Origin: Escherichia coli
GTDB taxonomy: Bacteria > Pseudomonadota > Gammaproteobacteria > Enterobacterales > Enterobacteriaceae
Reading direction: 5' to 3' (one strand)
Assembly (NCBI RefSeq): GCF_041248615.1
Contig: NZ_CP158426.1
Length of the DNA: 64,000 nt
Shown piece after piece: positions 10,452-62,951 of this stretch. The first letter of the stretch is position 1. Every line of letters starts with the position of its first letter. Both the position numbers and the translations under genes were made by a program. The notes under the pieces are model-generated. The model saw only the letters and a list, made by a program, of their open reading frames with translations, did not search any database and was not told where the DNA came from.

Positions 10452-10453
10452 AC

Positions 10454-10951: not shown

Positions 10952-11044
10952 TATCGTTTTTAATTAACTGATTATTTATCTCATCACTGGGTGATGCTGC
11001 CAACTTACTGATTTAGTGTATGATGGTGTTTTTGAGGTGCTCCA

Positions 11045-11742: not shown

Positions 11743-11792
11743 GTTGGAGTCATTACCCATCACTGAATATCTTTATATAGTGAGGACTTATT

Positions 11793-12617: not shown

Positions 12618-12744
12618 TTTCATTACTGCAAATGCCCCTGCGGGGGCATTTATGGAAACATAATCGACTCAATAATCGCCGGATGGTGAGGGCTTCCTTT
12701 TACCAGAATTCAGCGTGGTGCAGCACATATACGTGGAGAACAAA

Positions 12745-13281
12745 ATGTCATTTATTAAAACTTTTTCTGGGAAGCATTTTTATTATGACAAGATAAATAA
12801 AGACGACATCGTGATTAACGATATCGCGGTTTCCCTTTCAAATATCTGTCGCTTTGCAGGACATCTTTCACACTTCTACAGCGTCGCCCAACATGCGGTG
12901 CTTTGCAGCCAACTGGTACCGCAGGAATTTGCTTTTGAAGCGTTAATGCATGATGCAACAGAAGCGTATTGTCAGGACATCCCCGCTCCACTGAAACGCC
13001 TTCTTCCTGACTATAAACGGATGGAAGAAAAAATAGACGCCGTAATCCGTGAGAAATACGGGTTACCCCCGGTTATGAGCACGCCTGTGAAATATGCCGA
13101 TCTCATCATGCTGGCAACTGAACGCCGCGAACTCGGGCTTGATGATGGCTCTTTCTGGCCAGTACTGGAAGGTATCCCGGCAACAGAGATGTTCAAAGTT
13201 ATTCCACTGGCTCCGGGTCATGCCTACGGGATGTTTATGGAACGTTTTAACGAGTTATCGGAGTTACGCAAATGCGCATGA
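12745..13281 (+). CDS. HD-domain phosphohydrolase, YfdR-like (178 aa)
   Basis: SVAQHAVL...LMHDATEAYCQDIPAPLK, the HD motif. Confidence 0.7.
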   Translation: MSFIKTFSGKHFYYDKINKDDIVINDIAVSLSNICRFAGHLSHFYSVAQHAVLCSQLVPQEFAFEALMHDATEAYCQDIPAPLKRLLPDYKRMEEKIDAVIREKYGLPPVMSTPVKYADLIMLATERRELGLDDGSFWPVLEGIPATEMFKVIPLAPGHAYGMFMERFNELSELRKCA

Positions 13282-13634
13282 ATGTTTTCGAAATGGAAGG
13301 GTTTCTTCACGGGAGATGTGTACCACGAGACCTGAAAGTGAATGAAACGGATGCTGAATACCTGGTGCGTAAATTCGATGCGCTTGAAGCTAAATGTGCA
13401 GCACAGGAAAACAAAGTAATACCAGTATCAGTTGAACTGCCACCAGCAAATGAAAGTGTTCTGTTATTTGATGCTAACGGAGAAGGCTGGCTGATTGGCT
13501 GGCGTTCTCTCTGGTACACCTGGGGACAAAAAGAAACCGGAGAATGGCTGTGGACATTTCAGATCGGGGACCTTGAAAATATTAATATCACTCACTGGGC
13601 AGTAATGCCAAAAGCACCGGAGGCTGGAGCATAA
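13272..13634 (+). CDS. DUF551-like small protein (YfdS-like, 120 aa)
   Basis: C-terminal ITHWAVMPKAPE motif. Coupled to its neighbours. Confidence 0.55.
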   Translation: MRMNVFEMEGFLHGRCVPRDLKVNETDAEYLVRKFDALEAKCAAQENKVIPVSVELPPANESVLLFDANGEGWLIGWRSLWYTWGQKETGEWLWTFQIGDLENINITHWAVMPKAPEAGA

Positions 13635-14254
13635 TGACCACTTACACCGATAAGGAACAGATTAAAGAAATCAAAGAACGAATCGGCAGCCTAGACGTGC
13701 GAGACAATGTTGAGCGCCTTGCTTATGAAATTGCTCTGGCATCACTGGAAGCAGAGCCGGTGGCGTGGCTTCATTCAGACAATGGCTTAGGTATTCCGGC
13801 AATAACCAGGAGCAAAAACATTGCTGACAGTTGGTTATCAAAGGGCTGGTATATTCAGCCGCTATATATGGCTCAGCCAGTGTCGGTGGTGCCGGATGCT
13901 CTTCCGTCTTTAAATAATGGCATAGTCGGCTTTGATGAAGGCTGGAACGCCTGCCGCGCCGCCATGCTTCATGGTGCCAAACCTGTAAGCCAGACTTACA
14001 AGTTGAACGAGCTGTCGGGCAACTCTCCGGTAACTCCGGATGGTTGGATAAGCTGTAGTGAGCGAATGCCGAACGATAAACAGTATGTTTGGTGTTGGGG
14101 GAAGTCTTACGGCTGGACTGAGTGCGATACCTTCGAAGGGTATTACGATTGGTCGAGAAACAAATGGTGGGCAGTTACTGACGATGTGGAAGAACCGGCA
14201 TCGAAAGTAACCCACTGGATGCCGCTACCGGAGCCGCCGCAGGAGGTAAAGTAA
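13634..14254 (+). CDS. DUF551-domain protein (206 aa)
   Basis: C-terminal DGWISCSERMPNDKQYVWCWG...VTHWMPLPEPP. Confidence 0.6.
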   Translation: MTTYTDKEQIKEIKERIGSLDVRDNVERLAYEIALASLEAEPVAWLHSDNGLGIPAITRSKNIADSWLSKGWYIQPLYMAQPVSVVPDALPSLNNGIVGFDEGWNACRAAMLHGAKPVSQTYKLNELSGNSPVTPDGWISCSERMPNDKQYVWCWGKSYGWTECDTFEGYYDWSRNKWWAVTDDVEEPASKVTHWMPLPEPPQEVK

Positions 14255-14436
14255 TGAACAACTTAATGACAACTAAACAAGTCGCCAACTTCTGTGGAGT
14301 TTCAGTATCGACAGTTCTTCGCTGGAACAGCGTAAACAGGAGAACTGGCCAGAAATACAGGCCAGACTTTCCAGATCCTGATATTAAATCATGCCCAAAT
14401 AAATGGGCATCAGAGCCTGTACATAGATTTGTGTAA
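14254..14436 (+). pseudogene. AlpA/excisionase-like HTH gene, 3' end replaced by an IS insertion
   Basis: MTTKQVANFCGVSVSTVLRWN is the HTH. The IS left end at 14413 swaps the native tail RKIYKFAGVIE (readable after the IS at 15736 onward) for EPVHRFV. Confidence 0.7.
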
Positions 14437-15727
14437 TTGCCTGATTTTGATATGTTCAATCCAGCATCAAATGAAGGTTAATTTATGGACGAAAAACAGT
14501 TACAGGCTCTGGCTAACGAACTGGCCAAAAACCTCAAAACCCCTGAAGACCTCAGTCAGTTTGATCGGCTGCTGAAAAAGCTCAGCGTTGAAGCCGCTCT
14601 CAATGCAGAGATGACACACCATCTTGGGTATGAGAAAAATCAGTCCAGACCAGGAGCTAACTCCCGCAACGGTTATTCCACAAAGACCGTTATCACAGGC
14701 GACGGTCCACTGGAACTGCGTACTCCGCGCGATCGTGACGGTACCTTCGAACCACAACTGGTAAAGAAAAATCAGACCCGTATTACCGGGATGGATAACC
14801 AGATCCTCTCGTTGTATGCCAAAGGGATGACCACCCGTGAGATAGCCGCTGCGTTCAAAGAACTGTATGACGCAGATGTTTCACCGGCACTGATATCAAA
14901 GGTTACCGATGCCGTGATGGAGCAGGTTGTAGAATGGCAAAACCGACCACTGGATGCTGTTTACCCCATTGTTTATCTTGACTGTATCGTCCTGAAAGTT
15001 CGGCAGGACAGTCGCATCATCAACAAATCGGTGTTCCTGGCACTGGGCATCAATATCGAAGGTCAGAAAGAACTGCTGGGTATGTGGCTGGCCGAAAATG
15101 AAGGGGCGAAGTTCTGGCTCAATGTGCTGACTGAACTGAAAAACCGCGGTCTGAACGATATCCTCATCGCCTGTGTGGATGGCCTGAAAGGCTTCCCGGA
15201 TGCCATCAACACAGTATATCCGAAGGCCCGCATCCAGTTATGCATCGTGCATATGGTGCGCAACAGCCTGCGCTTCGTGTCATGGAAGGACTACAAAGCC
15301 GTCACTCGCGACCTGAAAGCGATTTATCAGGCTCCCACGGAAGAGGCAGGTCAGCAGGCACTGGAAGCGTTCGCTGCGGCCTGGGACAGTCGCTATCCTC
15401 AGATAAGCCGAAGCTGGCAGGCTAACTGGCCGAATCTTGCCACGTTCTTCGCTTATCCAACGGACATCCGCAAAGTGATCTATACGACGAATGCCATCGA
15501 GTCGCTAAACAGCGTGATCCGCCATGCGATCAAAAAGCGTAAAGTGTTCCCGACAGACGACTCGGTGAAAAAAGTGGTGTGGCTGGCAATCCAGTCTGCG
15601 TCCCAGAAATGGACGATGCCGTTGAAGGACTGGCGAATGGCAATGAGCCGCTTTATTATCGAGTTCGGTGACCGCCTGGACGGTCACTTCTGAGAAAAGG
15701 CATTTACACAGAATCCTAAACAGGCTC
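14413..15727 (+). mobile_element. IS256-family (mutator-type) insertion sequence, 1315 bp
   Basis: Imperfect ~29-bp terminal inverted repeats (gagcctgtacatagatttgtgtaattgcc / ggcatttacacagaatcctaaacaggctc). An 8-bp target duplication GGGCATCA sits at 14405-14412 and 15728-15735. Confidence 0.9.
14485..15693 (+). CDS. IS256-family transposase (402 aa)
   Basis: Mutator-family layout: ...YLDCIVLKVR..., ...IACVDGLKGFPDAI..., ...TTNAIESLN... Confidence 0.92.
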   Translation: MDEKQLQALANELAKNLKTPEDLSQFDRLLKKLSVEAALNAEMTHHLGYEKNQSRPGANSRNGYSTKTVITGDGPLELRTPRDRDGTFEPQLVKKNQTRITGMDNQILSLYAKGMTTREIAAAFKELYDADVSPALISKVTDAVMEQVVEWQNRPLDAVYPIVYLDCIVLKVRQDSRIINKSVFLALGINIEGQKELLGMWLAENEGAKFWLNVLTELKNRGLNDILIACVDGLKGFPDAINTVYPKARIQLCIVHMVRNSLRFVSWKDYKAVTRDLKAIYQAPTEEAGQQALEAFAAAWDSRYPQISRSWQANWPNLATFFAYPTDIRKVIYTTNAIESLNSVIRHAIKKRKVFPTDDSVKKVVWLAIQSASQKWTMPLKDWRMAMSRFIIEFGDRLDGHF

Positions 15728-15878
15728 GGGCATCACGCAAGATTTACAAATTTGCGGGAGTTATTGAGTAACGAGCATTAGCTCAGATGAGAGTTGGTAC
15801 ACCTATGGCACAGAGCTAAACCTGATCTGTTATATTCGCTCTGTGCCGGAAGTATGCCATATTTATTACATACAGTTG

Positions 15879-18011
15879 TCAATCTTTAAGACTAATTGTG
15901 ATTGCATCTGGAAATCCAATTTGGCTATAGCACATAGTTTCGGTTATGAATAATTTTCTATCGATAAAATCAAGTACATCTTTTTTCGTGAGCCCCGTTA
16001 ACATCGTCAATTTGTTAATTACATAATCATACCAATCATGGTGAAGCATGTTTATATACATGTTAATATCAACTGCATCTTTCTTCCATGAATTATTCGG
16101 TATCAAATCTTCAGATAAAAATCCTCTTATTAAATCGCTTGCATAGGACATCCTAAGAAAAACAGAAAGAAAAAGCCTTACATTAACATGTGTAAAATTT
16201 GTAGATAGCGTCGAAGGAAACTCGTAAAACCGGTAGATCAACCGACTTACAAAAACAGCAGAGTCTATCGCATTTACAGGCAGTAATGTTCCGATGACAC
16301 TTAATGCACCACTTATAACGAAGCCATTAGCAACAGAGGCATGAGAACCACTTAGGGCAGATGTTAAACATGCACTCAGAATTACGATAGGAGGAATTCT
16401 TGCTATTTTTCTCAAACTCCAAGTGTCCACTTTATCCTCACCTATTATTAACCATCCATGACTCCCATTGCCATCATGGTTTCCATGACAATCCATAACA
16501 AGAATATGACCTTGATATTGATTTAGAGCATCAATAAACTCAGCTTTCGATCTAACATCAATAATCTCGCAATCAAGATCTGGCATCTGTTTTTTAAATA
16601 TCTCAATTGCGTTCTCTAATATGAACTTTAAGTGATCATCAGGCTCAAAAGAACGTATAACTAAAACCTTTCTCAACTCAGATGCTTTTACTAAAACGCG
16701 CGGAAAAGCAGAGGCGCTCTGTAGAAGAACGTTACCAGGCGTAGCATTTATTCTTGATATCTCATGACTGAACATTATAGGTATGTTATTAAACCTAATC
16801 CAATCCAATGGTACATCACAAACAAAGGACAAATCGCTATAGTTTTTACTTATATATGTTCTCAACTTGCAACCAAGGGCTCTTCGAATAACAGTATTGA
16901 ATGCTTTAGATTTAGTGATGAATGCTTCACTATTTATCCCAGAAGAAGTTGCAAGATCTTCAAGATTTTTCAAATAATTGGAGTAATGATTTATTGCATT
17001 TGGCAATCTTATTGCTGGGATTTTTTTATTTATGCTAAATAAAGTAATCGCAGCTGTTGTTAATCGCATTTCAGCGCGTCTTAGTGAGGTGAGGTAACGG
17101 AAAGCAGGACTTTTAAAAAGTTCTTTTCTATCTGAATTTATATCAAGTCTAATTCCAGAATAGCCTGGATTCCTCAACACTCCATCAATAAGGAATTTTT
17201 TCTCAATTGTGGATAAATTTTCCGTTATTAACTCATAAAAGTCATTATTTTTATCATATAAAAAAGAGTGCATACCCGGAGCAAAAAGTAAGACTTCCGT
17301 TGGAAGTGGTATATCTAATTCCTTTAAACATTCGGTGTATGCATCAACGCTATGAAGTATTATTTCTATAAACTCTCTTTTGCTACTACCATCTTTAATT
17401 CTTTTTGGTGGAGATAGCATATAGCCAAGTGATTCAATTAACAACTCATTGGGTAGTGTTGAATTGTTAAGCGTCGATCTCCAAGGTGATTTATTAAATA
17501 AAGCCCCTCTTCGCTTCAACTTCGTTGATATTTTCTTTTCACTGTGATTTTTTCTTATTTTATCCTCAATGAATTTCAACCGAGAGAAGAGCACCTTATC
17601 AAATGAGTATATACTATTAATCTTATTAAGTGGTAGATCAGCGCGTTTAGAATTGCAACAAATTATAGGTGGTATAGCAAAATGTTTTTTTAAAGCACAA
17701 ACATACGAAAAATCTTCTTTAGCACAAAAAATTAAGCAAAATGGCGTTTGATAAATATTTGGTATTTTTTCAAGATTTTCTTTAGATATTAAAAAAATAG
17801 GATTTAGCCCGCTTAGAGTAGGCTGAAAGTTATCATTTTCACTGACAAAAATCTCACTAATTTCTTTTGGTGTTTTGGCCAATAAAAAAAGAATGTTGGA
17901 TATCTCTGGGTTGAGGAGGCCAGTATCGAAACCTTGGATTATGGTTTGTTCCCCAGTAGTAGGCATGATTACAACTTTAAGTATCGCCCCGTGTTCCTGT
18001 AACAGTTCCAT
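15879..18011 (-). CDS. CHAT/caspase-like domain protein with a ~470-aa unassigned N-terminal region (710 aa from ATG-18011; track ORF extends to 18068 via TTG)
   Basis: His-Cys dyad context ILVMDCHGNHDG (His codon 16485-16487) and PPIVILSACLTSA (Cys codon 16368-16370), ~38 aa apart. Very AT-rich. TATAAT on the minus strand at 18095-18100. Confidence 0.7.
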   Translation of the reverse strand: MELLQEHGAILKVVIMPTTGEQTIIQGFDTGLLNPEISNILFLLAKTPKEISEIFVSENDNFQPTLSGLNPIFLISKENLEKIPNIYQTPFCLIFCAKEDFSYVCALKKHFAIPPIICCNSKRADLPLNKINSIYSFDKVLFSRLKFIEDKIRKNHSEKKISTKLKRRGALFNKSPWRSTLNNSTLPNELLIESLGYMLSPPKRIKDGSSKREFIEIILHSVDAYTECLKELDIPLPTEVLLFAPGMHSFLYDKNNDFYELITENLSTIEKKFLIDGVLRNPGYSGIRLDINSDRKELFKSPAFRYLTSLRRAEMRLTTAAITLFSINKKIPAIRLPNAINHYSNYLKNLEDLATSSGINSEAFITKSKAFNTVIRRALGCKLRTYISKNYSDLSFVCDVPLDWIRFNNIPIMFSHEISRINATPGNVLLQSASAFPRVLVKASELRKVLVIRSFEPDDHLKFILENAIEIFKKQMPDLDCEIIDVRSKAEFIDALNQYQGHILVMDCHGNHDGNGSHGWLIIGEDKVDTWSLRKIARIPPIVILSACLTSALSGSHASVANGFVISGALSVIGTLLPVNAIDSAVFVSRLIYRFYEFPSTLSTNFTHVNVRLFLSVFLRMSYASDLIRGFLSEDLIPNNSWKKDAVDINMYINMLHHDWYDYVINKLTMLTGLTKKDVLDFIDRKLFITETMCYSQIGFPDAITISLKD

Positions 18012-18144
18012 CAAAAATCCTAATAAACAAATAAGAATGTTATAATCAAAAACTGCAAGGATTAGCAAGCAATTCTTACAGTTTTAAGAAGGGGATTATA
18101 CCGCAATATGCATAATTGCGTTCTGCCTATGCAAAATGTCAGTT

Positions 18145-19362
18145 CTAGTCTGAACAAGTACAAGTAACTATCGATTCAACTCTCTCCCACCATGCCTGGT
18201 AAGCTTTACGCTGTTCATCTAAATAATCGCTCTTGTCATAAACCTGCCATACCCCTGGCAGTTTATGACCGAGCATTATTTCTGCAATATGAGGTGCAGT
18301 AAGATCAGAAAAGTTTGTTCGTGCTGTTCGTCTCAAATCATGAAGAGACCAATGAGGGAATTGATACCCCAAACGCCGCCATGCGTACTGCATTAAATTG
18401 TAAGGCAGCGACTGCAATGATGTCCGGCCAACGGGTTCCCTGCTTCCTTCCTTAGTAAAAAGCATATCGGAACCATTGTTCATAGAGATAACGTACTTTA
18501 TAAGCTCTTCAACCGGTTCAATAATGGGGCGCTTTAGCGGTTCGCCTGTTATATCCCCTGTCTTATGTCGTTCTGGCGGTACAGTCCATACCTTATTAAT
18601 GAAATCAAAATCATTCACCCTAGCGGTAATTAGCTCTGAACTACGGCAGCCAAAATGCAGCAATAGTTTAATGAAGGCCCGGTATTTAGGAACCATTCGA
18701 GAACCATCGATCGCAGCATAAAGGATTTTAATTTCATCATGTGTCAGAAACCGTTTCTTCTGACCTTTACGGATATCCATATCTTTACCCGTGATATCCG
18801 ACAGCGGGCGAGTTTCAATGAGCTTTCTCTTATACGCCCAGACATGGGCCTGCTTTGCGTTAATTAGCAATCGGTCTGCTATTGCTGGAGTCTTAGTGCT
18901 AAGAGGCTCCAGGACTTCTAACCAATCATGCAATGTAGCTGCATCGTGAGGGATATTCCCGATTTTAGAGAACAGGTGCAGCTCAAACGAGCGGAGTATC
19001 TGTTCAGAACCTTTTTTATTTTTTACACAATATGCTTCATACCAGGCACGGATCACAGACTCTACCGTCATGGCTTCAGTAGCTTTTCGTTTTTCAGCCT
19101 GCTTGACTAATCGTGGATTGCGGTTTGACTCGAGTTCACCACGGAGACGGATAACTTCTTCTCTGGCCTCTTTTAATCCAGTTGCCGGGTAAGTTCCGAT
19201 ATCAAGGCGCTCACCTTTCCCTGCCCATTGATAACGATATTGGAACACTACGCGACCTTTCGGTGATACTCTGACAGACAGACCATCACGATCGGATTTA
19301 ACCAAAACCTTATCACGTTCCTTTCCAACGACTGAACGCAACCACGCATCAGACAGCGCCAT
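18145..19362 (-). CDS. Tyrosine integrase, P4-like (405 aa)
   Basis: N-terminal DUF4102-type arm-binding region (LSVRVSPKGRVVFQYRY). Catalytic WSLHDLRRTARTNF and LGHK...VYDKSDY. Confidence 0.92.
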   Translation of the reverse strand: MALSDAWLRSVVGKERDKVLVKSDRDGLSVRVSPKGRVVFQYRYQWAGKGERLDIGTYPATGLKEAREEVIRLRGELESNRNPRLVKQAEKRKATEAMTVESVIRAWYEAYCVKNKKGSEQILRSFELHLFSKIGNIPHDAATLHDWLEVLEPLSTKTPAIADRLLINAKQAHVWAYKRKLIETRPLSDITGKDMDIRKGQKKRFLTHDEIKILYAAIDGSRMVPKYRAFIKLLLHFGCRSSELITARVNDFDFINKVWTVPPERHKTGDITGEPLKRPIIEPVEELIKYVISMNNGSDMLFTKEGSREPVGRTSLQSLPYNLMQYAWRRLGYQFPHWSLHDLRRTARTNFSDLTAPHIAEIMLGHKLPGVWQVYDKSDYLDEQRKAYQAWWERVESIVTCTCSD

Positions 19363-19373
19363 TACTCACCTTG

Positions 19374-19430
19374 TACAAATAAAAAAACACCTCTGCTGTT
19401 TTGTACATTATGTACAAGCACATGTACAGA
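19374..19430. repeat. Four TGTACA-core repeats upstream of int (candidate arm-type/autoregulatory sites)
   Basis: TGTACA at 19374, 19404, 19413 and 19425. Confidence 0.5.
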
Positions 19431-19582
19431 TTTTTGATGAAAGCAACCTGATCGATTTAAAGTTACATGAAAGAATTTTCAATTAAAGAAACCACATAAC
19501 ATCATGTTATTAAATGAGTTATATGATTAGCACTCAATTAACTGAAAGGACTTTGAAAGAGTAAAAGAGCTTTAATTTGGGC

Positions 19583-19657
19583 TTAATTATTGGGGTGAGA
19601 AATAATGGCAAAAGTGCGGCGCTTCGCCACCTCTTGCAAATAAGGAGACAACGTCAT
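19583..19657 (-). pseudogene. prfC: 5' fragment of prfC (RF3), 22 native codons then phage-derived NN-stop; attR junction at about 19590-19596
   Basis: ATGACGTTGTCTCCTTATTTGCAAGAGGTGGCGAAGCGCCGCACTTTTGCCATTATTTCTCACCC = [22 protein letters not shown]. The expected DAGKT P-loop is missing. Confidence 0.85.
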
Positions 19658-51579: not shown

Positions 51580-52536
51580 ATGAACCCGATTGCAGTGACC
51601 CTACTCACCGGTTTTTTAGGCGCGGGCAAAACTACCCTGCTGCGCCATATTCTTAACGAACAACACGGCTACAAGATTGCCGTGATTGAAAACGAATTCG
51701 GCGAAGTCTCCGTTGATGATCAACTGATTGGCGACCGCGCCACGCAGATCAAAACGCTGACCAACGGCTGCATCTGCTGTTCGCGCTCCAACGAGCTGGA
51801 GGACGCGCTACTCGACCTGCTGGACAATCTCGACAAGGGCAATATTCAGTTCGACCGTCTGGTCATTGAATGCACCGGCATGGCCGATCCTGGCCCGATT
51901 ATTCAGACCTTTTTCTCCCATGAGATTTTATGCCAGCGCTACCTGCTGGACGGGGTGATTGCGCTGGTGGATGCGGTACATGCCGATGAGCAGATGAACC
52001 AGTTCACCATCGCCCAGTCACAGGTTGGCTACGCCGACCGTATTCTGCTGACTAAAACCGACGTCGCAGGCGAAGCAGAAAAACTGCGCGAACGCCTGGC
52101 GCGCATCAACGCCCGCGCACCGGTCTACACCGTCACCCACGGCGACATCGACCTGGGCCTGCTGTTCAACACCAACGGTTTTATGCTGGAAGAAAACGTC
52201 GTCAGCACCAAACCGCGTTTCCACTTTATCGCGGATAAACAAAACGATATTTCGTCGATTGTGGTGGAACTGGATTACCCGGTAGATATCAGCGAAGTTT
52301 CCCGGGTGATGGAAAACCTGCTGCTGGAATCGGCAGATAAACTGCTGCGTTACAAAGGGATGCTGTGGATTGACGGCGAACCTAACCGCCTGCTGTTCCA
52401 GGGCGTCCAGCGCCTCTACAGCGCCGACTGGGACAGGCCGTGGGGCGATGAAAAACCGCATAGCACGATGGTGTTTATCGGGATTCAGCTGCCGGAGGAT
52501 GAGATTCGGGCAGCGTTTGCTGGGTTGAGGAAGTAA
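51580..52536 (+). CDS. yjiA: COG0523 metal-binding GTPase YjiA (318 aa)
   Basis: P-loop GFLGAGKTTLL and a CxCC motif (GCICCS). Confidence 0.93.
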   Translation: MNPIAVTLLTGFLGAGKTTLLRHILNEQHGYKIAVIENEFGEVSVDDQLIGDRATQIKTLTNGCICCSRSNELEDALLDLLDNLDKGNIQFDRLVIECTGMADPGPIIQTFFSHEILCQRYLLDGVIALVDAVHADEQMNQFTIAQSQVGYADRILLTKTDVAGEAEKLRERLARINARAPVYTVTHGDIDLGLLFNTNGFMLEENVVSTKPRFHFIADKQNDISSIVVELDYPVDISEVSRVMENLLLESADKLLRYKGMLWIDGEPNRLLFQGVQRLYSADWDRPWGDEKPHSTMVFIGIQLPEDEIRAAFAGLRK

Positions 52537-52604
52537 GTTCGGGAAAGATCAACTTTTTGAGAGTTCCACCGCAACATTATTACAAGTGGAACTCTTTAGA
52601 TATG

Positions 52605-54257
52605 TCAGACCAACCAAAGCTTCTTCAATTGCGTTTTCATTTTTTCATGTCTCATTTTCAGTTCAGCCAATCCCCATTCTGAAGAATTACAAACATCTTT
52701 TGTTAAATCAAAAGAGCTTTTACTATTAAGTTTCTCATAAATAGATTTCTTTTTGATAAAATCATAGTGTTGTGCTTCAGAATTTTTGGAACCACTTATG
52801 AGTGTTAAATTACCTATTTTATGCAGCCAGTAGACATGCTCTTGAGGTTGGAATCTATTAATCCAGTATTCATTAACTAATGCTTGAGGAAGAATATGCT
52901 CAATTGTGATTCTCCCCGTATAGGTTTTAATCACGCTCTCATCTTGTTGCTCCATGTCTAAGCGAAGCAAAATTGCTTTTATTAAGTTCACTTGATTCGG
53001 ACGAGGCTCATATAAATCTTCATCCAGAGCAGCTATAAAACCTGAATTATCTGCATGTTGGTTTATCTGATTTATCACAGAATCAAAAGGCATATCATTA
53101 TTTATTGCTACCAGAGCTGAATAACAAACCATTTCTCTTTGGCTTTTAATTTGTTTTTTTAACCACCCATGCATATATACCTTCTCAAAGGCGGTAATAA
53201 ATTGAGAAAAATCATCTAAATTAAAATCTTCTGTACGAGCCATTCGATTCATGAATGCCATAACCGGAGGAATCCACTCATCTACCCCTAAATTACTTAG
53301 CGATGCTATTTTTCGTCGTATTGAAGGGTGTTCAAAATCATTCTCTAAAATCTTAGTATAATTTTTTGCAGAATTAACCAACATCAGTGACATAGCAATA
53401 GCATCTCCATCAAATTGCTGCTGGAGATTTTCAATAAAAGCTTCAAAACCTTTTTGTAATACCCTGTCACGATCTTTTTTCTCGGAAAGCTTATGAAGAG
53501 TAAGAAATTTATCAAGCCGTCTCACTCCAACCATATCTTCAATTTGCGACCATGCTGATTCTATTTGCTCTGATTTTTTATTATGCGTAGAAGCTGATTC
53601 AAACAGTGCATTTTTTAAAAGATCTGCATTACTTAAAGGTAAACCTCGACTATTTAATACATTAAAGAGTCTAAATGATGATGCGAAATCATCAGTTTGC
53701 ACAAATACGATATATACATTTTGCAAAATATATTTAGCAAGCAACTTCAACTCATCAACAGATAACCGCAACAAATAATCTCTAATTGTTTCAGCGTTGC
53801 TAATGAATACTAACTCAGTATCCGATGGCTTTTCAGGTTTATAATCTTTAGAATCCTGCAGTATATAATATTTATAAAGATCATACTCTTTTTTTCTAAC
53901 AATTAGTCTTGGTTCATCAGTTTCATCAGAATAAACATCAATAGGCAGAACTCTTTTTTGCAAATCATCTTTTATCCCCTGAATCGGGATGATTTTTTTT
54001 AGCTCGGAGACAATAATGCTTAACGTTGTAAGACGTTGTTGTCCATCTACAACTTCATACTGATTTTGCCCTTTATTGATACAAATCATACTCCCAATAA
54101 AATATTCATTCTCTTCTGATTGAGAGCTTTTATAAATATCATCAATGAGTTGCTCTGCATTATCTACCGTCCAACTGTAAGGACGCTGATAAGAAGGAAT
54201 AATAAACTTTTTGTTTTCAGTAAGGATATCCTGCACCTTACATTCTTTAGCTTCCAT
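52605..54257 (-). CDS. DUF262 + DUF1524 (GmrSD-like) putative type IV restriction / modification-dependent nuclease (550 aa from ATG-54257)
   Basis: N-terminal IIPSYQRPYSW ... VVDGQQRLTT. C-terminal ITIEHILPQ ... HKIGNLTLISGSKNSEA. Very AT-rich. Occupies the K-12 mrr slot. Confidence 0.75.
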   Translation of the reverse strand: MEAKECKVQDILTENKKFIIPSYQRPYSWTVDNAEQLIDDIYKSSQSEENEYFIGSMICINKGQNQYEVVDGQQRLTTLSIIVSELKKIIPIQGIKDDLQKRVLPIDVYSDETDEPRLIVRKKEYDLYKYYILQDSKDYKPEKPSDTELVFISNAETIRDYLLRLSVDELKLLAKYILQNVYIVFVQTDDFASSFRLFNVLNSRGLPLSNADLLKNALFESASTHNKKSEQIESAWSQIEDMVGVRRLDKFLTLHKLSEKKDRDRVLQKGFEAFIENLQQQFDGDAIAMSLMLVNSAKNYTKILENDFEHPSIRRKIASLSNLGVDEWIPPVMAFMNRMARTEDFNLDDFSQFITAFEKVYMHGWLKKQIKSQREMVCYSALVAINNDMPFDSVINQINQHADNSGFIAALDEDLYEPRPNQVNLIKAILLRLDMEQQDESVIKTYTGRITIEHILPQALVNEYWINRFQPQEHVYWLHKIGNLTLISGSKNSEAQHYDFIKKKSIYEKLNSKSSFDLTKDVCNSSEWGLAELKMRHEKMKTQLKKLWLV

Positions 54258-54534
54258 TTCATATACCCAATCAAACAATCAACAATAACATTATCTTTCT
54301 TGCTCGAAAGAAACGCAACTATAAGATTTTTATATATTTTGTTAGAGTTGATATGGTTCCTGTAACTTCTGTTTATCTGTCTCTGATATGCCCAGATTAA
54401 TTCAAGCAAGATATAACAGAGATATCAATGTGATCTCTGCTACGTACTTTACGTTGAAACACCGCCCTAAATCATAGCCAGGCTATTGATTTTATGTACA
54501 ATCAGAATCGTCCTGATAAAAGCGAGAATACCCC

Positions 54535-56967
54535 ATGGCGGAACTGAACCTAAGTAACCTGACGGAAGCAGACATCATTACCAAATGCGTTATGCCAGCC
54601 ATTCTCAATGCAGGCTGGGACAACACAACGCAAATCAGACAGGAGGTCAAACTCCGGAACGGTAAAGTCATCGTACGTGGTAAAGTTGCGGCACGCAGAA
54701 CGGTAAAATCTGCTGACATCGTGCTGTATCACAAACCAGGCATTCCCTTAGCCGTGATTGAAGCAAAAGCCAACAAACATGAAATCGGCAAAGGGATGCA
54801 ACAGGGCATTGAATATGCGCGCCTGCTGGACGTTCCTTTTGTTTTTGCCACCAACGGTGATGGCTTTATCTTCCGCGACGCCACCGCAGCCGAAGGTGAA
54901 TGCCTTGAAAAGCAAATAACGCTGGATGACTTCCCCTCCCCCGCTGAACTCTGGCAAAAATTCTGCCTCTGGAAAGGATACACACAAGCTCAGCTTCCGG
55001 TGATTACTCAGGACTATTACGACGATGGCAGCGGTAAATCACCACGTTATTACCAGCTTCAGGCAATCAACAAAACCATTGAAGCCGTCTCCAACGGGCA
55101 AAACCGCGTTCTGCTGGTCATGGCGACCGGAACAGGGAAAACCTATACCGCATTCCAGATCATCTGGCGCCTGTGGAAATCAAAAAATAAAAAACGCATT
55201 TTGTTCCTTGCCGATCGCAACATTCTGGTCGACCAAACCAAACATAATGATTTCCAGCCATTTGGTACGGCAATGACCAAAGTCAGCGGACGCACCATTG
55301 ATCCCGCTTATGAAATTCACCTCGCGCTCTATCAGGCTATAACTGGCCCGGAGGAAGACCAAAAAGCGTTTAAACAAGTCGCACCAGATTTCTTCGATCT
55401 GATCGTGATCGACGAATGCCATCGCGGCAGCGCATCCGAAGACAGCGCCTGGCGAGAGATCCTTGATTATTTCAGTTCCTCCACCCAAATTGGCTTAACC
55501 GCCACGCCAAAAGAGACGCATGAAGTCTCCAGCACGGATTACTTCGGCGATCCGGTTTACGTCTACTCACTAAAAGAAGGGATCGAAGACGGCTTCCTCG
55601 CCCCTTATAAAGTTGTCCGTGTTGATATTGATATAGACCTGCAAGGCTGGCGCCCAACCAAAGGGCAAACTGACTTAAACGGCGAAGTGATCGACGATCG
55701 TATCTATAACCAGAAAGATTTCGATCGCACGATGGTAATCGACGAACGCACAGAACTGGTTGCCAGAACCATTACCGACTACCTCAAGCGCACCAACCCG
55801 ATGGATAAAACCATCGTCTTCTGTAACGACATCGATCATGCAGAACGTATGCGCCGCGCCCTGGTTAATCTCAACCCGGAGCAGGTGAAAAAGAACGACA
55901 AATACGTCATGAAAATCACCGGCGATGATGAAATTGGCAAAGCTCAGTTGGATAACTTCATCAACCCGAAAAAACCGTACCCGGTTATCGCGACCACTTC
56001 AGAGCTGATGACCACCGGTGTGGATGCTAAAACCTGCAAACTGGTAGTACTGGACCAGAACATCCAGTCGATGACCAAATTCAAGCAAATTATCGGTCGT
56101 GGTACACGCATCGACGAACGTTACGGCAAACTCTGGTTTACCATCCTCGACTTTAAAAAAGCCACCGAACTGTTTGCCGATGAGCGTTTCGATGGCATTC
56201 CCGAAAAAGTCATGGATACCACGCCAGAGGATATCGCCGACCCAGAATCTGATTTTGAAGAGAAACTCGAAGAAATCAGCGAACATGACGACGAACAGGT
56301 AACAGGCGTTGATGAACCGCCTGCGCCACCATACCAGGTTACCGATACCGATGATGTCGGCCCACTTCCGGAAGAAGACGAGAAGAAAATCCGCAAGTTT
56401 CACGTCAACGGTGTAGCGGTGGGCGTTATTGCGCAGCGTGTTCAGTATTACGATGCCGACGGTAAACTGGTTACCGAATCTTTTAAAGATTACACCCGCA
56501 AAACACTGCTCAAAGAATATGCCTCGCTGGATGACTTTACCCGCAAGTGGCAGGACGCCGATCGCAAAGAAGCGATCATTCACGAGCTGGAACAACAGGG
56601 GATCATCTGGGAAGTACTGGCAGAAGAAGTCGGTAAAGATCTCGACCCGTTCGACATGCTTTGCCACGTAGTGTATGGTCAGCCGCCGTTAACCCGCAAA
56701 GAGCGCGCCGAGAACGTGCGCAAGCGGAACTACTTCACAAAATACTCTGAAGCAGCGCAAGCCGTGCTCGATAATCTGCTGGATAAATACGCCGATGCGG
56801 GCGTACAGGAGATCGAAAGTATTCAGGTGCTGAAACTTAAGCCATTCGACAGCATGGGCACCTTACCGGAGATTATTAAAACCGGATTTGGCGACCGTAA
56901 CGGGTATAATCAGGCGCTCAGCGAGCTGGAAAACGAAATCTACCAATTACCGCCCCGCTCTGCTTAA
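54535..56967 (+). CDS. hsdR: Type I restriction enzyme R subunit, IB (EcoAI-like) family, 810 aa
   Basis: N-terminal PD-(D/E)xK (DIVLY...IEAKAN), DEAD-box helicase motifs ([18 protein letters not shown]), acidic C-terminal linker. Confidence 0.9.
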
Positions 56968-56981
56968 CAACTCTCTTTTGC

Positions 56982-57020
56982 GCCTTCTGCAACCATCATG
57001 TTGCAGAAGGCCTTGTTTTT
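56982..57020 (+). terminator. Terminator-like hairpin between hsdR and hsdM
   Basis: gccttctgcaac-catcat-gttgcagaaggc, followed by cttgttttt. Confidence 0.55.
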
Positions 57021-57033
57021 CATGGAATACAAC

Positions 57034-58503
57034 ATGTCTATCAGCTCAGTAATCAAATCATTACAAGATATTATGCGCAAAGATGCCGGTGTGGACGGCG
57101 ATGCGCAGCGTCTCGGTCAGCTCTCCTGGCTGCTGTTTTTGAAAATCTTCGATGCCCAGGAAGAGGCGCTGGAACTGGAGCAGGATAACTATCAATATCC
57201 GATCCCACAGCGTTATTTATGGCGCAGTTGGGCCGCAAACGCTCAGGGCATTACCGGTGATTCCCTGCTGGAATTCGTTAATGATGATCTGTTCCCGGCG
57301 TTGAAAAACCTCACTGCGCCTATCGATAAAAACCCACGCGGCTACGTGGTAAAGCAGGCGTTCAGCGATGCCTATAACTACATGAAAAACGGTACGCTAC
57401 TGCGTCAGGTGATCAACAAGCTGAACGAAATTGACTTTACCAGCGCCAGCGAACGGCATCTGTTTGGTGATATTTACGAGCAGATCCTTAAAGATCTGCA
57501 ATCTGCGGGCAATGCGGGCGAATTCTATACTCCACGCGCCGTCACTCGCTTTATGGTGGATCGCGTTGATCCGAAACTCGGCGAATCCATTATGGACCCG
57601 GCCTGCGGTACGGGCGGTTTTCTTGCCTGCGCATTTGATCATGTAAAGAACAAATACGTGAAGAGCGTCGCCGATCATCAGACGCTGCAACAACAGATCC
57701 ACGGTGTTGAGAAAAAACAGCTTCCGCACCTGCTGGCGACCACCAATATGCTGCTACACGGCATTGAAGTGCCAGTGCAAATTCGTCACGACAACACTCT
57801 GAACAAACCGCTTTCCTCCTGGGATGAGCAACTGGATGTCATTGTTACCAACCCGCCGTTTGGTGGCACGGAAGAAGACGGTATTGAGAAGAACTTTCCA
57901 GCAGAGATGCAAACCCGCGAAACGGCGGATTTGTTCCTGCAACTGATTGTGGAAGTACTGGCGAAAAATGGTCGCGCGGCGGTGGTATTGCCGGATGGCA
58001 CACTATTTGGCGAAGGCGTTAAAACCAAAATCAAAAAGCTACTTACCGAAGAGTGCAACCTGCATACCATCGTGCGCTTACCGAATGGTGTGTTTAACCC
58101 CTATACCGGCATTAAAACCAACCTGTTGTTCTTTACCAAAGGTCAGCCAACCAAAGAGATTTGGTTCTATGAGCATCCGTATCCGGCGGGCGTGAAAAAT
58201 TACAGTAAAACTAAGCCGATGAAGTTTGAAGAGTTTCAGGCGGAGATTGACTGGTGGGGTAACGAGGCCGATGGTTTTGCCAGCCGCGTCGAGAATGAGC
58301 AGGCGTGGAAAGTCAGCATTGATGACGTGATTGCGCGCAACTTCAATCTGGATATTAAAAACCCACATCAGGCGGAAACCGTTAGCCATGATCCGGACGA
58401 ACTGTTAGCGCAGTATGCAAAACAGCAGGCGGAGATCCAGACGCTGCGTAATCAACTGCGCGATATTCTTGGCGCTGCGCTGTCTGGCAAGGAGGTTAAC
58501 TAA
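57034..58503 (+). CDS. hsdM: Type I R-M N6-adenine methyltransferase subunit (489 aa from ATG-57034)
   Basis: SAM motif DPACGTGGFL and catalytic NPPFG. Confidence 0.9.
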   Translation: MSISSVIKSLQDIMRKDAGVDGDAQRLGQLSWLLFLKIFDAQEEALELEQDNYQYPIPQRYLWRSWAANAQGITGDSLLEFVNDDLFPALKNLTAPIDKNPRGYVVKQAFSDAYNYMKNGTLLRQVINKLNEIDFTSASERHLFGDIYEQILKDLQSAGNAGEFYTPRAVTRFMVDRVDPKLGESIMDPACGTGGFLACAFDHVKNKYVKSVADHQTLQQQIHGVEKKQLPHLLATTNMLLHGIEVPVQIRHDNTLNKPLSSWDEQLDVIVTNPPFGGTEEDGIEKNFPAEMQTRETADLFLQLIVEVLAKNGRAAVVLPDGTLFGEGVKTKIKKLLTEECNLHTIVRLPNGVFNPYTGIKTNLLFFTKGQPTKEIWFYEHPYPAGVKNYSKTKPMKFEEFQAEIDWWGNEADGFASRVENEQAWKVSIDDVIARNFNLDIKNPHQAETVSHDPDELLAQYAKQQAEIQTLRNQLRDILGAALSGKEVN

Positions 58504-60248
58504 TGAGTGTGGAAAAGCTGATCGTTGATCATATGGAAACCTGGACCTCGGCGTTGCAAACCCGTTCCACCGCCGGGCGCGGCAGTTCCGGAAAAATTGA
58601 TTTATATGGCATTAAGAAATTACGTGAGCTGATTCTGGAACTGGCTGTGCGCGGTAAACTGGTGCCGCAGGACCCGAACGATGAACCGGCGTCGGAGCTG
58701 CTGAAGCGTATTGCGGCAGAAAAAGCAGAGCTGGTGAAGCAAGGTAAAATTAAAAAGCAAAAACCACTGCCGGAAATTAGTGAGGAAGAGAAGCCGTTTG
58801 AATTGCCGGAGGGATGGGAGTGGGTGCGTATTAGTGAAATTGGACATGACTGGGGACAAAAAACTCCAGATAAAGATTTTACTTACATTGATGTTGGTTC
58901 AATAAATAAAGAATATGGAATTATTGAAGAGCCATCTATTCTTTCAGCGAAAGATGCCCCATCGCGAGCGAGAAAAATTGTTCAGCAAGGGACTATCATA
59001 TACTCTACTGTTCGCCCGTATTTGTTAAATATAGCTATTATTGAAAACGAAATACTACCTGAACCGATCGCTAGTACTGCCTTCGCTATTATTCATCCAT
59101 ATACGGCGATGGATGCTAATTTCATTTATTATTATCTACGTTCTCCGGTATTTGTTTGTTATGTTGAAAATTGTCAGACAGGGGTTGCCTATCCAGCAAT
59201 CAATGACAAACAATTTTTTTCTGGAATAACTCCAGTTCCTCCATCCTTGGAACAAGTTCGCATCGCAAACAAAATCAAAGAATTAATGTCCCTCTGCGAC
59301 CAACTGGAACAGCAATCCCTGACCAGTCTGGACGCACATCAACAACTGGTTGAAACCCTGTTGGGAACGCTGACTGACAGCCAAAACGCCGAGGAACTGG
59401 CTGAAAACTGGACGCGTATTAGCGAGCATTTCGACACACTATTTACCACCGAAGCCAGCGTGGATGCGCTAAAACAGACCATTCTGCAACTGGCGGTAAT
59501 GGGTAAACTTGTGCCGCAGGATCCGAATGACGAACCTGCCTCTGAACTGCTCAAACGAATTGCGCAGGAAAAAGCACAACTGGTGAAAGACGGGAAAATA
59601 AAAAAACAAAAACCGTTGCCGCCGATTAGCGATGAGGAAAAACCGTTTGAACTGCCGGATGGGTGGGAGTGGTGTCGTATCGTTGATTTAGCAATTGTAG
59701 GTACAGGCGCAACACCTTCTCGTGATGAGCCCAACTATTGGAAAAATGGAGTAATTAATTGGGTGACAAGTGGAGAAACTTGCTTACCTTTTATTCAAAA
59801 CACCACCGAACATATTACCCAAAAGGCTGTTGATGAAACAAATGTTTCAATCTATCCACCAGGAACTCTTATTATTGCAATGTATGGACAAGGAAAAACA
59901 AGAGGGCAAATCACAGAGTTATTAATAAGTGCTGGAACAAACCAAGCATGCGCAGCCATTCGATTAATCGAAACGGATAATGAGCATCGTAAATTTATAA
60001 AACTTTTTTTTGAAAAGTCTTATGATGATTTACGTAGTTTAGCCGCTGGAGGTGCACAGCCAAATCTAAATGTAGCAAAAATATCACAAACTGTTATACC
60101 ATTGCCCCCTAAAAGAGAACAAAATCGGATCGTTTCTATTGTGGGGGAGTTATTAATTTATTGCGATAAATTACGCAAAAATATCCAGACCGCCCAACAA
60201 ACCCAACTGCACCTTGCAGATGCACTAACTGACGCGGCGATAAACTAA
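58503..60248 (+). CDS. hsdS: Type I R-M specificity subunit, long IB-type (581 aa) with two AT-rich TRDs and a duplicated conserved spacer
   Basis: The ~70-aa segment GKLVPQDPNDEPASELLKRIA.EKA.LVK.GKIKKQKPLP.IS.EEKPFELP.GWEW occurs twice (nt ~58630-58840 and ~59485-59700). ATGA overlap with hsdM. Confidence 0.9.
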   Translation: MSVEKLIVDHMETWTSALQTRSTAGRGSSGKIDLYGIKKLRELILELAVRGKLVPQDPNDEPASELLKRIAAEKAELVKQGKIKKQKPLPEISEEEKPFELPEGWEWVRISEIGHDWGQKTPDKDFTYIDVGSINKEYGIIEEPSILSAKDAPSRARKIVQQGTIIYSTVRPYLLNIAIIENEILPEPIASTAFAIIHPYTAMDANFIYYYLRSPVFVCYVENCQTGVAYPAINDKQFFSGITPVPPSLEQVRIANKIKELMSLCDQLEQQSLTSLDAHQQLVETLLGTLTDSQNAEELAENWTRISEHFDTLFTTEASVDALKQTILQLAVMGKLVPQDPNDEPASELLKRIAQEKAQLVKDGKIKKQKPLPPISDEEKPFELPDGWEWCRIVDLAIVGTGATPSRDEPNYWKNGVINWVTSGETCLPFIQNTTEHITQKAVDETNVSIYPPGTLIIAMYGQGKTRGQITELLISAGTNQACAAIRLIETDNEHRKFIKLFFEKSYDDLRSLAAGGAQPNLNVAKISQTVIPLPPKREQNRIVSIVGELLIYCDKLRKNIQTAQQTQLHLADALTDAAIN

Positions 60249-60857: not shown

Positions 60858-62951
60858 TTATACCAACGCGTTCTCCATCTGTTTTTCAAATGCCTGACGA
60901 ATTAATCCCATAATGTAAGGAAGTTGTGCGAGGTCGCTGAAACCAATTTCCACATCACCATTGCCCCAGCGCCCAACATTTGTCACATCTTTGGCAATAC
61001 CTTTCGGATCGACCAGTTCATGAAACTGCATATTAAGCGACAATCGCAGTCGGCTTTTTTGCGGCACAACATCAACAAAATTCGTTTCAGCTTTAAACGC
61101 AATATATAGCTTCAATACTTCCTGCGTGATCCCTGCGTCCAGGCGCATAACTTCATCGCGAAGATGATCGAATAACACTCGGCTATGCGAACCATCAGCA
61201 AGAAAAGGAAAATCATTCAGGCTGTAACTGGTTTTGTTTTCAGGCTGCCCCCGATAAACAGCTAAAACCTCTTCAGGAAGAGCAGGCGCTTGCCAAACCT
61301 GAACCGCAAGCTCCGCCAGACGATCGGCACGGGCATGAATGGCGGCTTCATCCCATTTTTCGCACTGTCCAAGACCGATATTCAAATAGAGCGGGCTATG
61401 TTTAAAGCCGTCTTCAATATCGCGTTTTTCCGCGAAAGGTCTGTCACTGTAGCGGGAGTTATAGCGCGTTAAAGTGAGATTCCCCAACGTATGTAACAGT
61501 TCTTTATGCACACGCTGCCAGTCGCTTCCCAGCTCTTCACGCCATTTAGCCGACAGATTTTCGTTCTGCGGCATAATATGCTCAATCGTAAACTCTTCCA
61601 CGCGCTCTCTGCGTTTATCGTTTTCCAGTCGTCGTAACCAGTAGCTGCGACTACGGAAGTTATAGAGATCGCGAACTTTTAATTCCCGTTTAAATTCATC
61701 ATCGTTGGGGAAACGACGATATGAAGGCAGATTCAGAAAATGTACCTGAATACTTTCCAGATATTTTTCTTTAATAATGACCTTATAAAAGGTAGCAAAC
61801 GTCTTGTTAAGAGAATTTGTCGGAATCGCACATACTGCACGGCGGAAAACATAAGATTCAATTAAACGAATTATGCTCAGGAAATCTTCGTGAGGCAAAT
61901 CGCCATTTTTATAGTCATGATAAAGCGCCAGTAAGAAAGGATACGCCACATCGACCTTTAACTCGCGCAAATCCTGAAAAGCCGTAGCAAGCGATTTGTC
62001 ACTTTCTTTACCCAATGCCATTGCACAGTAATACTCCGCGTAGATGTGAATATCTTCAACCAGGCGATCTACGCCTTTTTCAGCAACACTCTGGCTGCGG
62101 GCATGGAGTTTAAATGCCTCATAGACTTCATCTGTCCGAGGGATCTCCCCCGTTTTTACCGTCAGATAATGACGCATAAAACTGTCAAAATATTCGCTGT
62201 AACCTTGCTGACCAAAAGCGACTTCCATGGGTCGCCAGTGATCTTCATACAACCGGGTTTGATGCTCTGGTTCGAGGCCCATCAGAATAAAATTGCGCAC
62301 CAGATCGGCCTGACTTAACGCCTTACCGGTAGAGTTCATACTTTCAAAAATCAGTTGCGGATTATCCTGACCACGATTAAGCGCCACATCGACAATTAAT
62401 AATTTTGCTAACCCACGACATAAGGGAATCAAGTCATCCCCGAGTTTGGCAATTTGTTCATCAAAGAAAGTAAAGTTTTCCATTATTCGATGGGAATAGT
62501 TTTCTGGCATTGGTCTTTGTTTTATTAACGCCAGCAAACTGTCTTTATCAGTCTCGGTCAGCAGTAATTTAAATCCTTTCTCGCCGGACTCATAAGGATT
62601 GAGTAAATAATAATTACGCAATTTCATTGCTGAAAAGCCATCAAAAACTTCGTCTTCGCCAAGATGACGCGATAAAGCCTCAATCAGCAACATTGCGGTC
62701 GTCAGCCTTTGTTGACCATCAATGACCAGTAACGGAGAAATACCAGAAACCTGATACAACCCCTGCTCAATATAAACAACCGAACCGATAAAATGCGCTG
62801 ATATATCGTCACGCTTTCCGGCACGAATGATGTCGTCCCAAAGTTGCCGACATTGTTGTTCTGTCCATGAATAAGTCCGTTGATAAATGGGAATAACAAA
62901 CTGCTGCGAACGTTTTAAAAAATCGAGTAGGCGGGCTTCTGTAGCTTTCAT
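60858..62951 (-). CDS. DUF262 + DUF1524 (GmrSD-like) putative type IV restriction enzyme with an extra ~170-aa C-terminal domain (697 aa)
   Basis: FVIPIYQRTYSW ... VIDGQQRLTT. FTIEHIMPQ ... HTLGNLTLTRYNSRYSD. C-terminal KLYIAFKAETNFVDVVPQKSRLRLSL module. Occupies the K-12 mcrBC-yjiTV slot. Confidence 0.8.
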   Translation of the reverse strand: MKATEARLLDFLKRSQQFVIPIYQRTYSWTEQQCRQLWDDIIRAGKRDDISAHFIGSVVYIEQGLYQVSGISPLLVIDGQQRLTTAMLLIEALSRHLGEDEVFDGFSAMKLRNYYLLNPYESGEKGFKLLLTETDKDSLLALIKQRPMPENYSHRIMENFTFFDEQIAKLGDDLIPLCRGLAKLLIVDVALNRGQDNPQLIFESMNSTGKALSQADLVRNFILMGLEPEHQTRLYEDHWRPMEVAFGQQGYSEYFDSFMRHYLTVKTGEIPRTDEVYEAFKLHARSQSVAEKGVDRLVEDIHIYAEYYCAMALGKESDKSLATAFQDLRELKVDVAYPFLLALYHDYKNGDLPHEDFLSIIRLIESYVFRRAVCAIPTNSLNKTFATFYKVIIKEKYLESIQVHFLNLPSYRRFPNDDEFKRELKVRDLYNFRSRSYWLRRLENDKRRERVEEFTIEHIMPQNENLSAKWREELGSDWQRVHKELLHTLGNLTLTRYNSRYSDRPFAEKRDIEDGFKHSPLYLNIGLGQCEKWDEAAIHARADRLAELAVQVWQAPALPEEVLAVYRGQPENKTSYSLNDFPFLADGSHSRVLFDHLRDEVMRLDAGITQEVLKLYIAFKAETNFVDVVPQKSRLRLSLNMQFHELVDPKGIAKDVTNVGRWGNGDVEIGFSDLAQLPYIMGLIRQAFEKQMENALV

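Follow-up and report, generated by a model that had tools for sequence, protein, structure and literature searches.

The window analysed here is a stretch of 64,000 nucleotides of Escherichia coli DNA (contig NZ_CP158426.1 of assembly GCF_041248615.1), and the element under study is the single open reading frame (ORF) that it holds between yjiA and hsdR. This ORF, at 52605-54257 on the minus strand, encodes a 550-aa protein that we assign to the GmrSD family, and the product is identical to a RefSeq entry labeled 'DUF262 domain-containing protein'. Use of an upstream in-frame TTG would add 7 residues, giving 557 aa. Because 35 of 35 aligned homologs, down to 52% identity, begin with M-E-A-K-E, the start of the gene was placed at the ATG. 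The coding sequence and its two domains are as follows.

52605..54257, minus strand: coding sequence of the 550-aa GmrSD-family protein (ORF list, Pfam, identical RefSeq entry WP_000387532.1, ATG common to 35 homologs)
53601..54236, minus strand: GmrSD_N/DUF262 (ParB-like NTPase) domain, residues 8-219 (Pfam 4.7e-41, invariant motif residues)
52638..53024, minus strand: GmrSD_C/DUF1524 His-Me finger nuclease domain, residues 412-540 (Pfam 2.1e-27, conserved residues)

The Pfam search returned these two domains and nothing else. The match to GmrSD_N (PF03235) reached 141.6 bits against a cutoff of 33.2 and covered profile positions 1-199 of 199, and the match to GmrSD_C (PF07510) reached 96.1 bits against a cutoff of 23. 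NCBIfam gave no family match for either of the two GmrSD-like proteins of the window, and a search of 52300-54700 with Rfam gave zero matches. An earlier reading made from the letters alone (the sequence-only reading) had quoted the motifs YQRPYSW, DGQQRLTT and IEHILPQ and a second C-terminal stretch; all four were located in the translation, as SYQRPYSW at residues 22-29, VDGQQRLTT at 70-78, IEHILPQ at 452-458 and GNLTLISGSKNSEA at 482-495. The motifs of GmrSD_N are QR at 24-25, DGQQR at 71-75 (window 54033-54047) and FRLFNVLN at 195-202, while the key residues of GmrSD_C are E453-H454 (window 52896-52901), N483 and N492. Across the 35 homologs (52-92% identity), Q24, R25, D71-R75, F195/N199, F198/N202, H454, N483 and N492 are invariant, and E453 is kept in at least 90% of them. 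Mutation of the residues that match this invariant set abolishes defence in BrxU, HEC-06 and TgvAB.

An AlphaFold model built on the 35-sequence alignment had a mean confidence (predicted local distance difference test, pLDDT) of 85.8 and a predicted template modelling score (pTM) of 0.82. The model shows a mixed alpha/beta N-terminal domain, a long linker that is all-helical from about residue 210 to 437 (pLDDT mostly above 85), and a C-terminal domain; the strand 450-454 terminates at H454. Comparison of the model with the Protein Data Bank (PDB) by Foldseek produced ten matches with E ≤0.001, all of them DndI, SspE or BrxU chains, and the next match had an E value of 0.77. DndI came first (E 2.7e-15, template modelling (TM) score 0.54), SspE next, and BrxU followed at an E of about 1e-5; identity in the structural alignments with DndI and SspE was 14-17%. 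A search of the PDB by sequence gave the same order, with DndI (9jfl) best at 4.8e-13 and BrxU below threshold. The top PADLOC profile, matched over its full length at 1e-141, was 'Orf5', which we take to be a DndI-type family. Three of the four HEC-06 profiles were also matched end to end (1.5e-66 to 4.7e-64).

The protein thus has both domains at full length, the motifs, the helical linker, the His-Me finger and the fold of the GmrSD family (DUF262 + DUF1524; Machnicka et al. 2015). The domain profiles, the catalytic motifs conserved over the 35 homologs, the AlphaFold model and fold matches confined to DndI, SspE and BrxU all support this membership, and the GmrSD-like assignment made from the letters is borne out. 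The sequence-only reading had also used the domain pair as a marker of modification-dependent nucleases of the GmrSD/BrxU/SspE type. Membership in that family stands, but modification dependence is not implied by the pair, since SspE and DndI share the architecture yet attack unmodified DNA.

The cassette between yjiA and hsdR

The surroundings of the gene comprise the following features.

51580..52536, plus strand: yjiA, which is conserved and anchors the island on the left (98% identity to K-12 as far as its stop codon)
52548..54523: swappable cassette, from blastn against the comparison loci L004 and L005 (homology to 52547, and again from 54524)
52560..52596: hairpin between the convergent yjiA and GmrSD-like genes (sequence, fold z-scores)
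54258..54534: AT-rich divergent intergenic region, cassette-specific in all except its last 11 bp
54535..60248, plus strand: type IB (EcoAI-family) genes hsdR (54535-56967), hsdM (57034-58503) and hsdS (58503-60248) (Pfam ResIII + EcoEI_R_C, RefSeq names)

The gene order yjiA(+), GmrSD-like(-), hsdR(+) is that of yjiA-mrr-hsdR in K-12, in agreement with the earlier claim that the 550-aa protein occupies the K-12 mrr slot in the K-12 orientation. The further claim that the gene replaces mrr needs restating: the slot is indeed shared, but it is not mrr alone that was exchanged, as the whole hsd cassette differs too. DNA homology to K-12 stops at 52537, one base past the yjiA stop codon, and similarity beyond this point amounts to just two matches of 90-110 bp with ~70% identity within the hsd genes. 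The hsdR of the window, which encodes 810 aa of the EcoAI/type IB class, has no real DNA similarity to the type IA hsdR of K-12. Because DNA similarity stops after yjiA, we conclude that the entire mrr-hsdRMS block has been exchanged relative to K-12. Mrr, which has the same slot and orientation and is a stand-alone type IV enzyme, differs from the 550-aa protein in being a PD-(D/E)XK protein of 304 aa without homology to it; no Pfam Mrr domain was found in the latter, and its gene has no DNA similarity to K-12 mrr.

Compared with other type IB strains, homology is lost after 52547 and returns at 54524, which is 11 bp short of the hsdR start, and these two breaks define 52548-54523 as the exchangeable unit. 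Since the region upstream of hsdR is cassette-specific apart from the last 11 bp, the promoter of the type IB hsdR, whichever it is, is exchanged along with the cassette. The -35/-10 pairs at 54345-54318 (minus strand) and 54475-54502 (plus strand) are both weak matches to the consensus; they are named as candidates only, because the consensus scan gave fewer promoter-like sites than it did in shuffled sequence. Other type IB strains carry in the same slot a 63-aa 'antitoxin' gene and a 322-aa hypothetical gene, and this two-gene cassette was present at 4661-5860 of both GmrSD-lacking type IB loci inspected (L004 and L005). Neither of its proteins had a match in Pfam or PADLOC. The antitoxin/322-aa pair, uncharacterised and situated in a defence slot, could be of greater novelty than the GmrSD-like gene.

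The hairpin has a 10-bp stem formed by AGAGTTCCAC and GTGGAACTCT, at 52560-52569 and 52587-52596, and its fold z-scores relative to shuffled sequence were -2.8 on the plus strand and -4.2 on the minus strand. The sequence-only reading was right about the 10-bp stem but not about its coincidence with the left junction, because the hairpin lies 12-24 bp inside the insert, past the breakpoints at 52537 (K-12) and 52547 (type IB). At the same position, K-12 has a repetitive extragenic palindromic (REP)-like hairpin and Leclercia another, different one. The hairpin was therefore rejected as a recombination junction, the breakpoints lying earlier and the other alleles carrying unrelated hairpins at the same place. 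It is probably a bidirectional terminator between the convergent genes. A scan with a terminator consensus did not call it, and the sole terminator-like site of that scan is antisense and inside the GmrSD-like gene.

On the other side of the cassette, hsdS contains an internal direct repeat of ~190 bp with 78-81% identity (58632-58823 and 59481-59672), which presumably represents the pair of conserved regions found in type I specificity subunits.

Distribution, homologs and composition

The GmrSD-like ORF was found in 619 of 5426 complete E. coli genomes (~11%, about one in nine), with LF82, 83972, O104:H4, IAI39 and ATCC 8739 among the carriers. All 619 copies are chromosomal and they come from several lineages; 618 are at least 99% identical and the remaining one is 95-99% identical. 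As the type IB hsdR occurs in 975 genomes, ~60% of type IB loci carry the gene. The type IB hsd system is a neighbour of the gene and not its required partner: obligate coupling was rejected in view of the ~40% of type IB loci without the gene and of homologs that exist without type I genes. A short repeat within the coding sequence accounts for a broken form of the gene.

53993..54000, minus strand: A8 run in codons 86-88 (T8 on the plus strand), from the alignment with locus L003 and the split annotation

In O157:H7 and O55:H7 one A has been lost from this run, and the gene is split just after DGQQR into ORFs of 94 and 452 aa that are two proteins in RefSeq. Split annotation was seen in about half of evenly sampled E. 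coli matches. The run is interrupted in the homologs of other genera and is thus E. coli-specific. It is therefore read as a site prone to mutation, not as a conserved switch, and phase variation at the run was rejected for the same reason.

Full-length homologs were found in Leclercia, Pectobacterium and Enterobacter (90-92% identity), in Vibrio and Photobacterium (73-76%), in Microbulbifer (70%) and in Nostoc (54%). In Leclercia there is no hsd, and the segment yjiX-yjiA-gene aligns in the same order with that of E. coli, with 81% DNA identity. The Leclercia homolog is flanked by a full yjiA and, on the other side, by a duplicated yjiA 3′ fragment (L014 7142-7621 and 9714-10667), the fragment being 82% identical to window 52079-52536. 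This duplication may point to recombination through yjiA as the route by which the cassette was acquired. The Enterobacter homolog lies between a ScoMcrA-like HNH gene with symE on one side and a type III system on the other, and that of Pectobacterium is flanked by an ASCH gene and a TIR/SEFIR gene. Two Vibrio homologs, 74-76% identical, are mobile cargo: in V. parahaemolyticus (L009 7785-9790) the gene is a single chromosomal-integron cassette with attC-like repeats of ~127 nt on both sides, and in V. splendidus (L018 6567-9346) it sits between two Ogr/Delta genes of a P2-like element. The homologs of Microbulbifer and Nostoc are solitary. No neighbour is common to all eight contexts, i.e. 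the E. coli island, Leclercia, Enterobacter, Pectobacterium, the two Vibrio, Microbulbifer and Nostoc. Because the neighbours differ in every context, the gene can be regarded as a self-sufficient one-gene module with minimal flanks. An ORF of ~33% GC that serves as a cassette beside yjiA, as an integron cassette and as cargo of a P2-like element is a clean example of a minimal single-gene defence module. In phage and plasmid collections no homolog exceeded 31% identity; the subfamily is absent from plasmids, and no sequenced plasmid or phage carries a close relative.

The GC content of the gene, overall and at third codon positions (GC3), is 0.332 and 0.261, compared with 0.550 and 0.690 for yjiA and 0.497 and 0.564 for hsdR. 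The gene is therefore far AT-richer than both flanking genes (GC 0.332 vs 0.550 and 0.497), as had been estimated by eye. The homologs L006, L012 and L014 also have a GC of 0.33 and a GC3 of 0.26-0.29, in hosts of 50-55% GC, and ~40% of codons are synonymously different among the enterobacterial homologs despite this constant low GC. The low GC thus looks maintained and not like the leftover of a recent transfer. Against three other enterobacterial genera, 223-230 synonymous codon differences were counted vs 46-56 nonsynonymous ones, and purifying selection on the gene is strong across genera. The atypical composition, the clean homology breaks on both sides, the alternative cassette in the slot and the 70-92% homologs in unrelated contexts together support a horizontal origin, as the sequence-only reading had proposed from composition.

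Proposed activity and alternatives

The gene, its family and its position in the island are already known in the literature, as is its likely role, and current understanding is unchanged by the present analysis. Silas et al. (2025, Nat Commun 16:7828, PMC12373910) placed WP_000387532 itself in their cluster CLS_005, together with the LF82 allele and the O157 fragment, and they tabulate its ATCC 8739 locus beside yjiA; CLS_005 and the gene of the window are the same entity, without difference. CLS_005 is one of the 20 commonest enterobacterial GmrSD clusters. Grouping of the 20 clusters left 15 systems, 12 of one gene and 3 of two, and synthesised representatives of each were challenged with T2, T4 and T6; 8 of the 15 restricted T-even phages (PMC12373910). 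A search of main texts for WP_000387532 found nothing, and the accession came to light only in a supplementary table (PMC12373910); the 2023 preprint by Silas and coworkers lacks a cluster analysis. He et al. (2015) described GmrSD homologs beside type I genes in the restriction-gene island ('immigration control region') and listed LF82, which shows exactly the arrangement of the window. A 2025 EcoSal review that counted 9,040 such loci puts the share with GmrSD homologs at 12% and that with type IB systems at 11%, and the EcoAO83I paper, on a type IB island, does not mention the GmrSD-like gene. The gene is among the commonest type IV-like genes of E. coli, and its specificity bears on the host range of phage therapy and on the transformability of wild strains.

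Several characterised systems resemble the 550-aa protein. HEC-06 is of similar size (profiles of 558-569 positions), stands alone and has the same order of DUF262, helical linker and DUF1524. It acts alone, and both its DGQQR and its E-H residues are required for defence (Payne et al. 2024 preprint, 10.1101/2024.01.29.577857). HEC-06 reportedly blocks T4. A homolog from Bacteroides protects against T-even phages with modified DNA but not against T4-GT7, whose cytosine is unmodified. HEC-06 differs in being embedded in Hma systems, while the gene of the window is outside its neighbouring type I system and is read from the other strand. GmrSD of E. coli CT596 and Eco94GmrSD, the prototype type IV enzymes for DNA with glucosylated hydroxymethylcytosine (glucosyl-hmC), are single-chain, NTP-stimulated proteins with the same two-domain architecture and motifs. 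Unlike the gene of the window, they are prophage-borne and encode 629 aa, and identity to CT596 GmrSD is 23% over the first 241 residues (E 9e-14); the inhibitor IPI* and the substrate preference of the prototypes cannot be assumed for the 550-aa protein. BrxU (PDB 7P9K/7P9M) also has the GmrSD-family fold and acts alone beside a system that attacks unmodified DNA, which gives complementary cover. Its sequence similarity is, however, confined to the DGQQR region, and its gene is co-directional inside the operon of a bacteriophage exclusion (BREX) system. TgvAB of Vibrio cholerae VPI-2 is GmrSD-like, is physically associated with a type I system and has type IV activity against phages with glucosylated hmC. 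It consists of two proteins (DUF262-only and DUF262-DUF1524) encoded inside the type I operon, whereas the gene of the window is single, outside the operon and divergent. The two-protein arrangement of TgvAB and of GmrS1/GmrSD2 of ECOR17 was not found, as the cassette contains no second DUF262 ORF and the neighbours are yjiA and hsdR.

On balance, we favour the reading that the 550-aa protein is an NTP-driven, modification-dependent (type IV) nuclease that complements the type IB system, and consider it somewhat better than an even proposition. As is typical of type IV enzymes, the gene is solitary, with no conserved neighbour in the eight contexts, one of which is a single integron cassette. 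Because no methyltransferase or other partner accompanies it, the host is most likely spared for want of the target in its own DNA, i.e. as in type IV restriction. Type IV restriction, which the sequence-only reading had suggested, is the best-supported reading in view of the missing partner gene and of the end-to-end matches to HEC-06 profiles. The present data establish the architecture, the motifs, the fold, the purifying selection, the independence from neighbours and the borders of the cassette, while the NTPase and nuclease activities of the protein, its modification dependence and its target are inferred. By analogy with the characterised enzymes, the protein would probably be dimeric, and its N-terminal ParB-like DUF262 domain would bind and hydrolyse NTP by means of the QR and DGQQR motifs. 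The same domain may sense the state of the incoming DNA, and this sensing may license the C-terminal His-Me finger (E453-H454, N483, N492) to cut it. The likeliest targets would be the hypermodified cytosines of T-even-like phages. In the island, where the adjacent type IB system is directed at unmodified DNA, the predicted role would be to catch phages that evade this system through their base modifications.

Several observations weigh against type IV restriction as the role of the gene. The nearest solved relatives, by sequence as well as by fold, are DndI and SspE, which are not modification-dependent cutters, and identity to the prototypes is low, with 23% over 241 residues for CT596 GmrSD and a BrxU match at the DGQQR region only. 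Of the 15 GmrSD systems assayed, 7 were inactive on T-even phages (PMC12373910). None of the texts consulted gives an activity for WP_000387532, the plaque result for CLS_005 being presented only in a figure (Supplementary Fig. 8, PMC12373910). The gene is dispensable, since it is frameshifted in O157:H7/O55:H7 and ~40% of type IB loci are without it, and H-NS might silence a gene of such low GC (33%) in E. coli.

A specificity outside hmC and glucosyl-hmC, directed at arabinosyl-hmC, 7-deazaguanines or modified thymidines or adenines, is a possibility that we put forward tentatively. Such a specificity would explain why E. coli keeps the gene together with a 24%-identical GmrSD paralog in one island, and it would also fit if CLS_005 were among the 7 of 15 systems that do not restrict T2, T4 or T6.

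We consider it unlikely that the gene is a silent or decaying passenger, i.e. an intact frame that does not protect the cell because it is not expressed (for example through xenogeneic silencing of DNA with 33% GC) or has no current target. The frameshift loss throughout the successful O157:H7/O55:H7 lineage, the absence of the gene from most E. coli, the lack of a promoter match above chance and the paralog of the same island, broken in many strains, would all be consistent with such a passenger. However, the frame is intact here with every catalytic residue present, purifying selection is strong across genera, and the identity is at least 99% in 618 of the 619 carrier E. coli genomes, which represent several lineages. 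The recurrence of the gene as cargo of defence hotspots (integron, P2-like element) also argues against it.

Less probable again is a modification-sensing nickase of the SspE/DndI kind that would attack unmodified foreign DNA and be held off the host by a host-made mark, for example phosphorothioate or the N6-methyladenine (m6A) of the type IB HsdM/HsdS. DndI (PDB 9JFL) and SspE (6JIV, 7DRR) have the same domain order and are the best solved matches: DndI tops the PDB searches by sequence (4.8e-13) and by fold (E 2.7e-15, TM 0.54), and SspE is next. The top PADLOC profile, 'Orf5', would point the same way if it is indeed of the DndI type. In E. coli, moreover, the adjacent type I system methylates DNA, and its hsdR diverges from the gene at a common control region. 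Both DndI and SspE require phosphorothioate, the product of dndBCDE or sspABCD, and their target is DNA that lacks this mark. Unlike them, the gene of the window has no dnd or ssp genes near it in the 64-kb window, and none were found within 7-8 kb of the homologs in the seven other contexts. Phosphorothioate dependence was rejected because no linked sspABCD or dndBCDE was found, none being present in the 64-kb window. Without phosphorothioate, DndI is toxic and SspE is inactive, and neither property suits a gene that travels alone. Protection by the type I methylase fits poorly with the 70-92% homologs that have no adjacent type I system, one of them a lone integron cassette, and with the ~40% of type IB loci that are without the gene.

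A GmrSD-fold enzyme with a role other than restriction, such as an abortive-infection nuclease that a phage cue would turn on host DNA or a factor of DNA repair or partition, is very improbable: the ParB-like fold serves many processes and some GmrSD variants are grossly toxic when over-expressed, but all characterised two-domain DUF262 + DUF1524 proteins act on invader DNA, and the contexts found are without exception defence islands, sites of mobile cargo or solitary insertions.

The second GmrSD-family gene and the left end of the window

Beyond the hsd genes the island holds another member of the family.

60858-62951, minus strand: second GmrSD-family gene, 697 aa (GmrSD_N, GmrSD_C and a C-terminal DUF5655)

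The 550-aa protein is 24% identical to this 697-aa paralog over about 550 aa, and the two copies thus differ in sequence, as the sequence-only reading had stated. The 697-aa gene sits in the mcrBC slot after symE and is one uninterrupted ORF, whose product was matched by a PADLOC profile end to end. RefSeq annotates the same DNA (60858-62951) as a 387-aa protein and a pseudogene fragment. In O157 the 697-aa gene is split, and in another strain IS1 interrupts it.

At the left end of the window, positions 1-19600 form the terminal part of a lambdoid prophage whose integration site adjoins yjjG. This part contains the gene of a 710-aa CHAT-domain protein beside the integrase, and copies of IS1414 and IS1.

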